Part shown: positions 44,322-62,722 of the stretch, in pieces | How positions within the stretch are numbered: the first letter of the stretch is position 1 | How the letters are laid out: each line of letters begins with the position of its first letter | Origin: Eledone cirrhosa | Taxonomy: Eukaryota | Direction of reading: 5' to 3' | Assembly (NCBI GenBank): GCA_964016885.1 | Contig: OZ024741.1 | Span: 95,542,001 to 95,606,000 of the forward strand | DNA: 64,000 bases | Made by a program: the position numbers and the translations under genes | The notes under the pieces: model-generated | The model's input: the letters and a program-made list of their open reading frames with translations, nothing else | Database searches by the model: none | What the model was told of the DNA's origin: nothing

Positions 44322-44402
44322 GTGTATGTATGTATGTATGTATGTATGTATGTATGTATGTATGTATGTATGTATGTATGTATGTATGTATGTATGTATG
44401 TA

Positions 44403-45006
44403 AGGTCACCAGTTGGTGCTACTGGTAACATGTATCCCAGTACAACCTGTCTCATGGTCGGGTCGTTGGCGACTAAACTGGCAACCCCACCAAGGTTTCT
44501 TGGTGAGGAGGGTGACTTTGGACGTCCTGCAGGACTAAAACAAAACCTGTCAAAGGGCAAAGGAACTCTTAAGAGTCAATGGCCATCCAAAATCACCGGG
44601 AGAGATGACCCCTTAGCCTTTGTCAAGGCAGAATTCTAGGAGAAGGAAAACTCTGATATAACACCTGCAACTCTGATGGTATCCAATGATGTTGGCTTGT
44701 TCCTCTTTTTGGTAAATATCATCTTGGTTAAGAGAGTGGGACTGGCTTTGTGCAGTGCCTTTGCTCACTATAAAAGCTTCACGGCACAGGCATTGCTTTA
44801 TATCTGGAGATCTCTCTGCACTTGTCGTCACATGGTACCAAAGGCAATGCACTATGTGTCAATAATTGTCACAAGTGTAGTGTTTGTACCAGAGTTTTCA
44901 AGTCGCTGGCTGGACTAAAGAGTCACACTCGTTCAGCGCATCGGTAGGGGTTCTCCTACATGGATATAAAGTAGTGGCCGTACTCGAAAACGAGTTGGCA
45001 GTCACC
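44403..45006 (+). mobile_element. Non-autonomous bipartite derivative of the zinc-finger RTE family
   Basis: 44634-44796 aligns with the RTE 5'UTR at 50169-50351. 44870-44947 encodes HKCSVCTRVFKSLAGLKSHTRSAHR*, matching the last RTE finger. The tail GGCCGTACTCGAAAACGAG..GGCAGTCACC matches 54225-54256. Flanked by (TATG)n on both sides. Confidence 0.85.
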
Positions 45007-45087
45007 ATGTATGTATGTATGTATGTATGTATGTATGTATGTATGTATGTATGTATGTATGTATGTATGTATGCATGTATGTATGTA

Positions 45088-45226
45088 AGAAACTCCTTTC
45101 CAGAAATAACTTCTGGAAAAAAGAGGACATGTGTGACGTCTGAACGAATATCCTCCACCTCCAACTATCTTACCCTCCGCCTCTGTGCCCCGGTCGACAG
45201 GATGGAGAATACATTGCCCCGTAGGA
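45088..45226 (-). mobile_element. CRE-like 3' end with a (TACA)n tail
   Basis: Near-identical to 62359-62498, which continues into CRE endonuclease-coding sequence. Confidence 0.75.
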
Positions 45227-45228
45227 CG

Positions 45229-46255
45229 TTCACTTATTCATGAGAGGGTCGTGGGGACAGAGTCCCTAAACACTCCTTCCAGCGGATCCTGTCAGAAGTA
45301 ACCATTTTCAAATGACTCGGCTGGATCCTCTAACGAGAGCAGCCGAGCTCATGGATGTTATCCAACCGGCTTACTCTGGGTCTACTCTTGTGCCCTTCCG
45401 GTTGGTTTTACCCGTAAAATCTGTACAACGATTCTTTTCTGAAACATTCTAATCACATGGCCATAATACCCGAGCTGAGAAGTAGCGACTCTACCTGGAG
45501 TAACTCTCCGATGTCATAGCCACGCACTCTATTGAGTAACGTTACTCCAGAGACCCTTCAGAGGAACCCCATTTCAGCCGTTTGTATTCGCGATCGTATT
45601 CTTTCAGTCATTACCCAAGGTTCATAGCCATAGGCAAGGGCCGGCCGAATGCCGAATTGAAGATGGTAAATTTTGCTTTTACACCTACCTCCCTTCTTCT
45701 GATAACTGAATGTTGAGGCTGGCACATTACTGCACCAGCTCCTGCAATTCTTTCACTTAATTCAGCCTCTTACCTTCTATTGCTCGTGAACAGGACCCCA
45801 AGATACTTGAACTTCTCCACCTGCTTTAGTGTAACTCCATTCACATATAGCGTGTACTGCGCAGGCTACCTTAAAAAGATGAGCGTCTCAGATTTCGCAG
45901 CACTGATTTTCATTTCAGCCATGCAGCACTCGGCATCAAACCTATCAAGTGTATATCAGAGATCACCTTCTGTCAAGTTAGGTAACACCATGTCATCTGC
46001 AAATTCCTTGCCAGACGTAATTCCACTTCCAATCTAGTTACGCATGCCAATCCTGTTCATGTAAATAATGAACAAGAGAGGTGACAGTACGTACCCTTGG
46101 TGGACTCCAACTTCCACATTGAATTGTTTCGATTTAGAACCATTTATCCGAACATAAATACTCGGACATTCGTATAGACACACTAGGCAACAAGAAGTTG
46201 ACCATCGATCCCATACTCATGCAGAGCCTTCTACAGTCCAGTGGTACGCCTTCAT
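45229..46255 (-). mobile_element. RTE-clade (Expander/Rex3-like) LINE fragment, decayed RT plus 3' end
   Basis: Minus-strand remnants VGVHQGYVLSPLLFIIYM, FADDMVL, VEKFKYLGV and SRIQTAEMGFL. Homologous to 11289-11757. Confidence 0.85.
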
Positions 46256-59140: not shown

Positions 59141-59895
59141 ATGTATGTATGTATGTATGTATGTATGTATGTGTGTGTGTGTGTGTGTGTATGTATGTAT
59201 GTATGTATGTATGTATGTATGTATGTATGTGTGTGTGTGTGTGTGTGTGTGTGTGTGTGTATGTATGTATGTATGTATGTATGTATGTATGTATGTATGT
59301 ATGTATGTATGTGTGTGTATGTATGTATGTATGTATGTATGTGTGTGTGTGTGTGTATGTGTGTGTGTATGTATGTATGTATGTATGTATGTAAGTATGT
59401 GTATGTCTGTCTGTCTGTCTGTCTGTGTGTGCGTGTGTATGTATGTATGTATGTATGTATGTATGTATGTATGTGTGTATGTGTGTGTGTATGTATGTAT
59501 GTAAGTATGCCTGCATGTATGTATGTATGTATGTGTGTGTATGTAAGTATGTATGTATGTATGTATGTATGTATGCATGTGTGTGTGTGTGTGTATGTAT
59601 GTATGTATGTATGTATGTATGTATGTATGTATGTATGTATGTATGTGTGTATGTATATATGTATGTGTGTATGTATGTATGTATGCATGTATGTGTGTGT
59701 GTGTATGTATGTATGTATGTATGTATGTATGTATGTATGTATGTATGTGTGTATGTATGTATGTGTGTATGTATATATGTATGTATGTATGTATGTATGT
59801 ATGTATGTGTGTATGTATGTATGTGTGTATGTATATATGTATGTATGTATGTATGTGTGTATGTATGTATGTATATATGTGTGTATGTATGTATG

Positions 59896-60276
59896 TTCTT
59901 CTGGTTTTATAATTTCACAAAGTTTTACCAATAGAGAGAGGGTCGGTTTCTAACATAGACACAAGACTCTCTCAATGGAATTTACACAACATCAACTAGG
60001 TAGATATGAATGCATGCATGCATGCATGTGTAGATATGGATGTTATTGTATGTGTGGATGTGTATCTTTTGAGTTGTATGTGTGATGTGTATATGCTTTG
60101 TATCTGTACATGTGTATATGCAGTTATTAGATGCAAAATTTTTGGAATGTTTTACATATTTTTACTGTTCCATTAATGGATTGTACTTGTAATTTCCTAA
60201 CTAGTTGTGTTCTTTCTGTTCCTGTGAAGCCTAGCTTCTCAAGATTTGTATTGAGGCAGTTACTAACATATCCCAG
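59896..60276 (-). mobile_element. 3' end of a second, diverged Dong-like subfamily
   Basis: LGYVSNCLNTNLEKLGF..RKLQVQSINGTVKICKTFQKF aligns with TGYIPTRLDQSMTELGF..HRLQMAAIAGTFKICKTFLRF. The 3'UTR differs. (TATG)n on both sides. Confidence 0.8.
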
Positions 60277-60334
60277 TGTATGTATGTATGTATGTATGTA
60301 TGTATGTATGTATGTATGTATGTATGTATGTATG

Positions 60335-61860
60335 TTTTCTCTTTCTCTTAATTTTGAGTATATTTTTTTGACCGGCCACCTTCCTGGTGGCAAGGTTGTA
60401 AAAGAAAAGAAATTGTCATCCCTTGAATCGCAAGAACGTCTTGCAAACTTTGAAGGTGCCAGCTATCGCAGCCATTTGTAGACTATGAATTAGGGAGCTG
60501 CGCTTTTTGTCCGCAAATCCAAGTTCAGTCATACTTTGGTCCAAGCGGGTTGGTATATAACCCGTAGCACCAATAATGATGGGTATGAAGCTAAAGGTGT
60601 ATCTTGGATACTGGATTTGTAAACTCCTCATCAATGGTCCGTAGATGTCCTCCTTCTCCTGTATTTTTCTGACAACGTTTACATCAAGTGGGCAGCTGAT
60701 CTCCACAACAGAACACGTTTTCAATGTGTGGTCCCAAACCACAATATCAGGCCGGTTGTGCTTTAATCTGGTGGCAGTTTCTACCTTCAGGTTCCACCAG
60801 TATTCCTTAGTGCCATCTGTCTCAATATATTCTTCCTCGTTTGTTGTTAATTTTGTTTTCCGAAGTGCGTTCCAGATGGTTCTAGCTATCCCATCGTGTC
60901 TCATGGGGAGGTAGTAGCGAGATGACATTCTTTCGCAGCTGGCAACAATGTGGCTTACATCCTCGATCTTTGTTTTACATAGCCTACATTTATTGTCAGC
61001 TGCTGGCCCTCCTCTTTTGTGCAGCAGATATTTGGTAGGGAGTTCTTGTTCCTGTATTGCATAGAGATATCCCTCAAGGTGTGATGTCATAAACTTGTCG
61101 GAACTCCATGCCAGGCTTTTTGAGTGGTTTATCCCCTCTATGGTCTGTGTTTTACGCCTCAAGTATCCATGCACAACTTTTTCTGTAAATTGGTCAATTT
61201 TTTTTATCTTGTTTGAACATTGAATAGGATCTTCCGATTTCTCTGGGTGAGAGATTTATATCGGGCTTTATTCCATATCTCTCCTCCAGATCAGTCGCTA
61301 TTCTAATGATATTTCTTTTTTCATGCTCATAAACCTGGGCAAGATGGTTGCCAACCTTTTTCCTCTGTTGAAGGTGTTGCTTCAGTGTCACTATCCGGGT
61401 CTCATTGGTTGTTAATATTGATTTTAGACCCCGGCCACCTTCCTTGCGTGAGAAGTATAGCCTATCCACATCACCATTGATGTTAAAGTTCCCAGTAACA
61501 CTGAGAAGTTTTCGAGTTCTAACATCCATCTCACTTAGTTCTTGCAATGACCAGTTCAGTAGGCCAAATGTTGGCGTTAGAATTGGCACAGCATAAGTAT
61601 TGTGGGCAATGTATTTGTTGTATGCTGACAGTTCTGATGACCATATTTTCTTTACTCTTCTGAGGTATTCAGTTCTGGTTTTCTCCTTATTTATGGGTCC
61701 ATCATATCTGACATTCTCATCCTGTCCAAGATATCTGTAGTTGTCACCTGACTGCAGAGGTTGTATTGTCAGGCCGTTCATCTCTAGATTTCTAGAGGAG
61801 GGCACAGCTCTTCCACGTTTTACTGCCAAATATGCACACTTGGACTCACCAAATTTCATT
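60335..61860 (-). mobile_element. Dong-like element copy 3 (1.5 kb, 5'-truncated)
   Basis: Highly similar to 54614-56139 with independent substitutions. Intact CCHC (CRLC..H..SC) and RPD..D..E motif. (TATG)n on both sides. Confidence 0.92.
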
Positions 61861-62358
61861 ATGTATGTATGTATGTATGTATGTATGTACGTTTGTATGT
61901 ATGTATGTATGTATGTATGTATGTGTGTGTGTGTGTGTGTATGTATGTATGTATGTATGTATATATGTATGTATGTATGTATGTATGTGTGTGTGTGTGT
62001 GCGTGCGTGCGTGCGTGCGTGTGTGTGTGTGTGTGTGTGTGTATGTATGTATGTATGTATGTGTGTGTATGTATGTATGTGTGTGTGTGTGTGTGTGTAT
62101 GTGTGTGTGTGTGTGTGTGTGTGTATGTATGTATGTATGTATGTGTGTGTGTGTGTGTGTGTGTGTGTGTGTGTGTGTGTGTATGTATGTATGTATGTAT
62201 GTATGTATGTGTGTGTGTGTGTGTGTGTGTGTGTATGTATGTATGTATGTATGTGTGTGTGTGTGTGTGTATGTATGTATGTATGTATGTATGTATGTAT
62301 GTATGTATGTATGTATGTATGTATGTATGTATGTGTATGTATGTGTGTGTATGTATGT

Positions 62359-62722
62359 AAAAATTCCTTTCCAGAAATAACCTCTGGAAAAAAGAGGGAA
62401 TGTGTGACGTCAGAACGAATATCCTCCACCTCCAACTAACTTACCCTCCACCTCTGGGTCCTGATCGACAGGATGGAGAATACATTGCCCCGTAGGATAG
62501 TGAGGAACAGTCACTTCACCTGGCGGGGCTGGCACCTGCAGGCAGCTAACTCCGCTCCGATAGTAGTGAGTAGCGTTGTGGTCCTGTGGCCAAGAACGCC
62601 GGAAGTCTCCACAGATTCAGACTCTACCACAAACCTATCAGAGAACGGCCGATACTTGGACAGTTTGCCCTCATCGGCCTGGCACGCAGCAGAGCCTGGG
62701 CTGGCAGCCGAACGCACCAGGT
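62359..62722 (-). mobile_element. CRE-like 3' fragment with a (TACA)n tail
   Basis: SAACQADEGKLSKYRPFSDRFVVESESVETSGVLG..LLTTIGAELAACRC aligns with the C-terminus of the element at 32.9 kb. Confidence 0.85.

Follow-up and report, generated by a model that had tools for sequence, protein, structure and literature searches.

The 64-kb stretch of Eledone cirrhosa DNA analysed here (the window) contains two clusters in which elements of different LINE families abut (TATG)n arrays in fixed orientations (Table 1), and the question raised by this locus is whether the arrays are a shared target of these elements or their product. We found that the landing pad is common to Dong-like and RTE-type families, which use it on opposite, fixed strands, and that the arrangement recurs genome-wide.

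Table 1. Features of the two clusters, in window coordinates.
Feature	Position	Strand	Remark
(TTC)n and unique flank X (68 bp), marking the left edge of the duplicated locus, copy 1	44185..44322	.	
(TATG)19 array, 5' flank of mini-element	44325..44402	+	
605-bp non-autonomous mini-element, sister RTE family	44403..45007	+	
(TATG)n array separating mini-element from CRE end	45008..45086	+	
CRE-like 3' fragment, copy 1	45087..45230	-	128/143 identical to copy 2
(TTC)n-like run and flank X, copy 2	49177..49324	.	61/65 identical to copy 1
(TATG)10, true 5' flank of RTE copy	49326..49365	+	
5'-truncated zinc-finger RTE-type LINE	49369..54256	+	full length ~5.4 kb
Single intact ORF of RTE-type LINE	50471-54016	+	1181 aa: APE, RT (YADD), three C2H2 fingers
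Mixed (TATG)/(TG) array, RTE 3' end to Dong-A 3' end (tail to tail)	54257..54613	+	
Dong-like family A, near full length	54614..58666	-	4053 bp vs ~4220
(TATG)n array at 5' end of long Dong-A	58667..58910	+	
Dong-A 3' fragment	58911..59143	-	229/230 identical to 54614-54843
750-bp mixed (TATG)/(TG) array	59144..59895	+	
Dong-like family B 3' fragment	59896..60278	-	
(TATG)14	60279..60334	+	
Dong-A, 5'-truncated	60335..61859	-	98.1% to long copy
500-bp mixed (TATG)/(TG) array, running on into TACA tail of CRE	61860..62358	+	
CRE-like 3' fragment, copy 2	62359..62730	-	

Every piece named in the sequence-only reading was found on the strand assigned to it, the mini-element and RTE-type LINE on the plus strand and the Dong-like and CRE-like ends on the minus strand. 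The second cluster is present, although it extends over 49.3-62.7 kb instead of beginning at 54.2 kb, as the RTE copy starts at ~49369; likewise, the four Dong-like copies exist but belong to two families, A (three) and B (one). The mini-element, thought to derive from the same RTE, comes from a sister RTE family (78% over 204 aligned 5' UTR bases) and is composed of a 5' UTR-like part, a zinc-finger-like remnant as read from the sequence, and an RTE-type 3' terminus. The long Dong-A copy has a broken ORF with RT, zf-RVT, and an RPD..E endonuclease-like motif, and to judge from its near identity the fragment at 58911-59140 may be a local duplicate of this copy's end rather than a separate insertion.

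Both clusters carry an RTE-family element on the left and a CRE end on the right, which might be read as a meaningful convergence. Flank X has two matches genome-wide, both within these two clusters, which rules it out as a fourth mobile family. Since the same unique left flank is present in both, the clusters are copies of one locus, and their common layout reflects local duplication of a unit consisting of flank X, (TATG)n, and the CRE end. The X copies and the CRE copies are mutually 90-94% alike, and Dong-A, RTE, and mini-element are 95-100% identical to their best relatives. From this divergence, an old, untargeted CRE-like copy would have provided the first TACA units, followed by local duplication of the unit; copy 1 would then have received one mini-element, and copy 2 one RTE plus three or four Dong elements, through which it would have grown by ~13 kb. 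Long near-pure arrays and Dong ends 98-99.6% identical to each other lie close together here, as might be expected of a misassembly joined at microsatellites, but this explanation is highly improbable: the 13-kb cluster and its sibling locus 5 kb away agree in their outer flanks, insertion polarity is uniform, comparable mixed clusters were found in unselected windows (L334 and L335), and the genome-wide result is independent of this locus.

Polarity in the fetched loci was absolute, with 205 junctions one way and 0 reversed. In family samples taken as the best-matching 30 of 500-1,750 candidates, not as random draws, Dong-A copies sit in (CATA)n on both sides; at least four CATA units were present in the 40 nt upstream of 33/35 copies and 57/62 in the pooled set, against a background of 0.7% of random genomic positions with at least four TATG in the same interval. 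Dong-B was array-associated in 14 of the 20 copies having a resolved 5' junction, a further 30 of 50 junctions being lost to the count with a reference copy that has an indel of its own. RTE and mini-element copies lay in TATG/TA (TG/TA) arrays in 45 of 49 cases, and 31 of the 49 had at least four TATG upstream. All 20 long RTE copies had TATG-sense repeat upstream and 19 a TG/TA array, as did 26/29 mini-elements. Neither random 5' flanks nor random orientation, either of which would speak against targeting, was thus found for Dong-A, RTE, or mini-element, and the shared (TATG)n landing pad, fixed polarity, and multi-family community proposed from the window hold genome-wide.

For the RTE-type family, a reading with no true array specificity has to be weighed, in which any T|AT is nicked, two bases of CAU suffice for priming, and arrays are hit through the great abundance of TA/TG repeats and lengthened later by slippage beside the insertion. 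TA-type nicking and tail-to-target matching have been described for RTE/Bov-B elements (PMC6007223, PMC13295347), AT preference alone would account for the polarity, and 35% of T|AT sites already lie within TG/TA arrays, as do 58% of sites with the matched short motif RT|ATRT. Measured against that matched motif, however, residence in any TG/TA array is 92% versus 58% (45/49, p = 2e-7), and flanks with at least four TATG make up 63% versus 7% (31/49, p = 8e-24). TATG-dominant flanks also outnumber TA-dominant ones 28 to 15 among the 49, a loose preference that nevertheless stands against 18 times more bases in TA than in TATG arrays in the sampled genome. This reading also leaves Dong-A unexplained, and we consider it unlikely.

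The sequence-only reading had further proposed that the elements write TATG/TACA tails that become targets for one another, and that the resulting self-expanding arrays may help account for the abundance of the microsatellite. The 3' ends of RTE and mini-element argue against this. Each element ends in (CAT)1-3 units, after which the target-site duplication begins with AT at the element end, mostly 10-15 bp long and with no TATG in between. Tail and target are indistinguishable in pure arrays, and an informative duplication was available in 9/20 RTE and 5/29 mini-element copies only; in 5 of these 14 the longest match reported by the script lay 7-12 bases off the element end. In four loci, a duplication that includes non-repeat bases begins at the element end (L232, 14 bp; L243, 19 bp; L081, 14 bp; L294, 24 bp). 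Among exact RTE 3' ends, 1,339/4,473 continue with ATGTATGT and 70% do not, and the type of repeat downstream follows the local target upstream (rho 0.76 for RTE, 0.69 for mini-element), so the RTE writes no TATG tail, and tail-writing by the mini-element finds no support. The UTRs of the RTE themselves contain TG/TA/TATG-mixed microsatellite, and the RTE therefore spreads potential targets as cargo.

In favour of tail-writing, the CRE-like element does carry a TACA tail of its own: of 30 copies examined, 16 had a recognisable terminus, and 15 of these had at least one TACA unit and 5 at least five; next to two long-tailed copies, L035 and L057, lie Dong fragments. The short CRE tail occasionally gives rise to an array: the one at this locus goes back to it and those at L035 and L057 probably do too, and in this narrow sense the proposal that tails make targets stands. 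The element itself is old and lacks targeting: no TATG/CATA array was present in the 30 5' flanks examined, which removes it from the targeting community in which it had been placed. An evenly spaced 800-kb genome sample contained 34 TATG tracts, 19 of which adjoin elements of these families, none of them CRE, while 15 have no listed element within 60 bp. ACAT repeats occupy ~0.175% of sampled bases versus 3.1% for AT, and an explanation of microsatellite abundance by the elements is not supported. The 5' array is longer than the 3' array in 12/15 full-length Dong-A copies (p = 0.0009), which could reflect repeat addition at the junction; the asymmetry is not significant in truncated Dong-A, RTE, mini-element, or 60 pooled Dong-A copies. 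No target duplication was detectable at Dong-A, and long or displaced duplications around Dong, suggested by L010, L228, and a thrice-repeated (TCTG)n marker in the window, were not in excess (2/23 versus a control mean of 1.07). Taken as a general source of the arrays, tail-writing is distinctly unlikely.

We instead consider it likely that Dong-like and RTE-type elements insert, on opposite strands, into (TATG/CATA)n arrays that pre-date them. In this scheme, the restriction-like endonuclease of Dong would nick the TATG strand and the AP-endonuclease of the RTE the CATA (or TA) strand, where the freed AT could pair with the CAU end of the RNA and prime reverse transcription; such pairing would fix RTE polarity. 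Each insertion would split the array in two yet not destroy it, and because the target survives, clusters would grow by repeated hits.

Several protein features bear on the family identities. The CRE-like translations contain RPDG and LRGN-type motifs, putatively of CRE type, and gave no Pfam or PDB match. Dong-like proteins have RVT_1 followed by zf-RVT, the latter under the curated cut-off in one copy and over it in the other, and an RPD..E motif read from the translation; the N-terminal ORF, where the R4/Dong clade has a divergent Myb/SANT domain, has no Pfam match. A single ORF, RT, cysteine motif, PD..(D/E)-type endonuclease, lack of an N-terminal zinc finger, and specificity for microsatellite or rDNA sites (here microsatellites, in families A and B alike) are features of the R4/Dong clade. 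The RTE-type LINE combines Exo_endo_phos and RVT_1 in one ORF, has neither a gag-like ORF1 nor a CCHC knuckle, and its 1.6-kb 5' UTR contains no ATG-started ORF >69 aa; with its short repeat 3' end and 10-20-bp duplication it resembles the RTE clade, a putative label based on architecture and motifs, no named RTE reference being among the homologues or solved structures. The family is young, with an intact ORF in 17/20 long copies.

Microsatellite targeting by LINEs is already known. Dong elements target (TAA)n in insects, molluscs, and cnidarians, and those of Bombyx mori, DongAg, DongBg, and ostracod Dong resemble the Dong-like families in having a single ORF with RT, a cysteine-rich segment, and a restriction-like motif at the C-terminus, and in being bordered on either side by microsatellite in a fixed orientation (PMC3812793, PMC7998251). 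The target here differs, being (CATA)n in place of (TAA)n and common to two families, which amounts to a target switch for Dong. Waldo elements of the R1 clade (WaldoAg1/2, WaldoFs1) are ACAY-specific, and like the RTE-type LINE are AP-endonuclease LINEs that enter the same ACAT repeat (PMC3812793). The RTE-type LINE differs in accepting TA arrays too. R1-clade elements such as Waldo have a gag-like ORF1 with CCHC knuckles, unlike the single ORF with three C-terminal C2H2 fingers found here.

RTE/Bov-B LINEs and their SINEs provide further parallels, with a single APE and RT ORF, 10-20 bp duplications, a short repeat tail that agrees with the first bases of the target duplication, and short non-autonomous derivatives (PMC6007223, PMC13295347, PMC2887409, PMC9115989). 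RTE-2_OV of Octopus vulgaris, compared by description only, also has a C2H2 finger and a microsatellite-rich 3' UTR, though with 1109 aa and a finger versus 1181 aa and three fingers (PMC9115989). Array aiming is unexpected for RTE-type elements: RTE insertion is described as not sequence-specific (PMC2887409, PMC6007223), a habit rather than a defining character of the clade, and Bov-B is described as rarely flanked by tail-like targets (PMC6007223, PMC13295347, PMC2887409, PMC9115989). Microsatellites made by RTE elements, as described, lie between the duplications, whereas here the array is in and outside the duplication. LINE tails seed microsatellites in lepidopteran RTE (PMC2887409) and in squamates (PMC6050309), as does the CRE-like tail, except that the seeder here is old and adjoins no sampled tract, and the abundant families use arrays. 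As far as the literature consulted extends, a Dong element with a CATA target and an RTE-type LINE that strongly targets arrays are apparently new. Among AP-endonuclease LINEs, papers from 2018 and 2026 present only the Tx1 and R1 clades as site-specific. The chances are evenly balanced that the RTE-type family is a third such lineage with real specificity, converged with Dong on the ACAT repeat from the opposite strand, and that microsatellite arrays, as self-renewing landing pads into which tens of thousands of insertions are funnelled, make up hotspots of transposons in a genome of octopus-like type. Such hotspots are described as unexplained in octopus, where RTE and Dong-R4 are LINEs discussed as active in the brain (PMC9115989, PMC13282606).

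A young, ORF-intact, array-targeting RTE-type family offers a direct test of endonuclease versus zinc fingers versus RNA-DNA pairing in LINE target choice. Should these families indeed insert into microsatellites, new insertions called from short reads would carry a bias, and TATG markers would be unreliable. A shared premature stop ahead of the Dong endonuclease was also considered and rejected, as 34/36 copies read through that codon. Dong-like proteins share 34% identity with RT proteins from Bombyx whose family is not stated, and RTE relatives with flanks in metagenomes, seven distant loci only (22-36%), were left out of the comparison.

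At window scale, every element in the sequence-only reading was found in the orientation claimed: a zinc-finger RTE-type LINE, a 605-bp non-autonomous element (mini), three Dong-like copies of family A (Dong-A) and one of family B (Dong-B), and CRE-like 3' fragments. Their clade names rest on architecture and characteristic motifs rather than on phylogenetic placement among named elements. Among named relatives, the Dong-like protein is closest to one from Argonauta hians (62%), and SINE and microsatellite content resembles that of octopuses, so the source is probably an octopod. 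Comparison among copies puts the full-length RTE at ∼5.4 kb with a 1.6-kb 5' UTR, and 17 of 20 long copies retain a full ORF. The window copy is 5'-truncated and starts immediately after (TATG)10, so TATG flanks both sides of the RTE too. Because zinc fingers are common among relatives of the RTE, the fingers alone are no sign of targeting. Across 204 aligned bases the mini is 78% alike to the RTE 5' UTR, and its terminus is also related; it therefore derives from a sister RTE family. A second mini, made of a 5' UTR segment joined to the last 45 bp of the RTE, accounts for 12 in a consecutive set of 30 exact 3' ends and is the closer derivative of the zinc-finger RTE. Two relics lie between the clusters, and two satellites and an older CRE-like relic lie elsewhere in the window.

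Positions of features in the window, and at other loci (L-numbers) of the same genome
Feature	Position	Strand	Description
RTE copy	∼49369-54256	+	
RTE ORF	50471-54016	+	intact, single, 1181 aa; AP endonuclease, RT, three C2H2 fingers
Mini	44403-45007	+	
(TCTG)n-(TG/CG) interruption	approx. 54448, 58808, 59405		
Decayed zf-RVT LINE 3' end	47.9-48.7 kb		
RT-like relic	45.7-46.25 kb		
CRE-like relic	approx. 31.9-33.6 kb	-	longer and older; 69% to 62504-62722
Satellite, 50-bp units	12225-15728		3.5 kb
Satellite, 40-bp units	16968-25718		8.75 kb; 195/235-bp higher-order period
Mini 3' repeats	L335:2155-2450		last 134 bp
Second mini	L297, L299, L304, L305, L310, L311, L314-L316, L318, L319, L322		

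Flanks were surveyed at the best 30 loci per end search (out of 542-1,758 candidates each), plus the surroundings of long Dong-A and long RTE copies (20 regions for each). In the background sample of 80 evenly spaced 10-kb windows (800 kb), at least four TATG occurred at 0.7% of random positions and any TG/TA array at 6.8%; at RT|ATRT sites, the values were 7% and 58%. At least four CATA lay in the upstream 40 nt of 18/20 truncated Dong-A copies (10 of 30 loci being left out: 2 window copies, 2 broken alignments, and 6 running off the locus) and of 15/15 full-length copies (only those with both ends, at 3.9-4.3 kb). Pooled across all loci, 57/62 Dong-A copies had at least four CATA upstream, and CATA comes next at the 3' ends. 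Dong-B had at least two CATA downstream in 47/50 copies, and at least four upstream in 14 of the 20 with a resolved 5' junction. An upstream TG/TA array was present in 19/20 RTE copies, with TATG in the sense orientation, not CATA, in 20/20, and in 26/29 mini copies (24 sense, 3 antisense). RTE, mini and Dong-A thus all exceeded background; for RTE and mini combined, TATG-rich flanks (31/49) and TG/TA arrays (45/49) compared with 7% (p = 8e-24) and 58% (p = 2e-7) at motif-matched sites. The opposite-strand fixed polarity claimed for the window holds genome-wide: in a motif census across the whole set of loci, 205 junctions had the expected polarity and none the opposite. Among the unselected windows, L334 and L335 hold two mixed RTE/mini/Dong clusters with the window's polarity, and 16 mini matches at at least 93% identity were spread over 10/80 windows.

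The reading had the RTE writing its own TATG tail. According to PMC2887409, an element-written repeat sits between the target-site duplications. The RTE/mini duplication begins at the element end, with AT as its first bases, and L232, L243, L081 and L294 carry clear duplications that include non-repeat bases and start there. Duplications were informative in 9/20 RTE and 5/29 mini copies. Five of the 14 had their longest match displaced 7-12 bases from the element end; three of the five, all RTE copies, also had 10-12-bp matches at the element end, and a pure TATG run between element end and displaced match was absent in 5/5. Upstream and downstream repeat types agreed (TA with TA, TATG with TATG; rho 0.76 for RTE, 0.69 for mini). 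Only 1,339 of 4,473 exact RTE 3' ends genome-wide continue into ATGTATGT, and the tail proper to the RTE is (CAT)1-3. Together, these observations make the RTE family a user of arrays, not the tail-writer proposed; it contributes just a 10-15-bp duplication and the mixed microsatellites present inside its UTRs. An inverted RTE piece occupies the 5' junction at L153, L160, L172, L174 and L179 (5/30 of L151-L180), as well as L122 and L249, resembling L1 twin-priming inversions. At L242, the RTE 5' end is in a short tandem duplication, 14 bp apart, with target repeat between. Head-to-tail repeats of the mini's 3' end at L335, with ATATATGTATGT between units, look as if produced by re-primed reverse transcription.

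No Dong target-site duplications above control were found, and in its pure arrays tail and target are indistinguishable. The 5' array was longer than the 3' array in 12/15 full-length Dong-A copies, which may be compatible with repeat synthesis at the junction. Three arrays in a row, spanning Dong copies of the window, contain one and the same (TCTG)n-(TG/CG) interruption, suggesting duplicated array segments of 100-300 bp. At L222, a Dong-A 5' end is in a short tandem duplication, ∼120 bp apart, with target repeat between.

Target arrays, polarity and duplication geometry are the demonstrated parts of the mechanism. The Dong restriction-like nuclease would nick the TATG strand; the RTE would nick the opposite strand, before AT, and prime by pairing of its CAU end, much as end pairing is proposed for RTE tails in PMC6007223. 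RTE and mini prefer TATG over TA about 30-fold per base, an excess that would need protein recognition or growth after insertion. Published targets are (TAA)n for Dong and ACAY for Waldo of the R1 clade (PMC3812793, PMC7998251), whereas Dong-A here targets (CATA)n and an RTE-type LINE favours ACAT arrays of the same kind as Waldo's. Site-specific APE LINEs are restricted to Tx1 and R1 according to PMC6007223 and PMC13295347, and PMC4640811 lists the same groups. In the sections consulted, PMC13282606 and PMC9115989 cover RTE and Dong-R4 families of octopus but include no target analysis. Neither a CATA-targeting Dong nor an array-targeting RTE turned up in the literature searched, which lay outside Repbase/Dfam and subscription papers.

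CRE copies are old, being 74-92% alike with 10 exact matches to a 29-base end. None of the 30 5' flanks inspected was a TATG/CATA array, and at least one TACA followed 15 of the 16 recognisable termini (of 30 copies). CRE therefore seeds arrays by its tail and does not target them; its proposed place in a shared-target community survives for the TACA tail but not for insertion into arrays. Tails of five or more TACA occurred in 5 copies, including the window pair (2), and Dong fragments lie behind a long CRE tail at L035 and L057. CRE is a minor seeder: sampled TATG tracts adjoined it in 0/34 cases, and RTE, mini or Dong in 19/34.

The left edge of both clusters is formed by (TTC)n together with a 68-bp flank, which occurs twice genome-wide (3.0 Gb), both times in the window, in a search skipping simple repeats. 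Since this unique flank is common to both and the CRE ends are mutual best matches, the two clusters are one locus duplicated, by either DNA duplication or 3' transduction; the common layout is real but does not represent unrelated arrangements meeting. The copies are 94% identical in the flank and 90% in CRE. Each approximates the empty site of the other, copy 1 having grown 0.6 kb since duplication and copy 2 ∼13 kb. Identities to best relatives (∼95-97% for Dong-B and mini, 97-99.6% for Dong-A, 99-100% for RTE) suggest, on divergence, the order CRE, duplication, Dong-B and mini, Dong-A, RTE.

ACAT is the top tetramer repeat yet makes up only 0.175% of the 800 kb sampled, far below AT (3.14%) and AC (0.62%). 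More than half of its tracts are occupied, but the idea that the elements account for microsatellite abundance finds no support. Many TATG runs are located within TA/TG tracts and may derive from them through mutation and slippage. Of the original interpretation, array use and fixed polarity stand, but RTE tail-writing, CRE targeting and the abundance argument are not supported. At L146, L222 and L238, other families, with terminus GCAGCCATC or similar, adjoin TATG arrays, so the community exceeds the families named.
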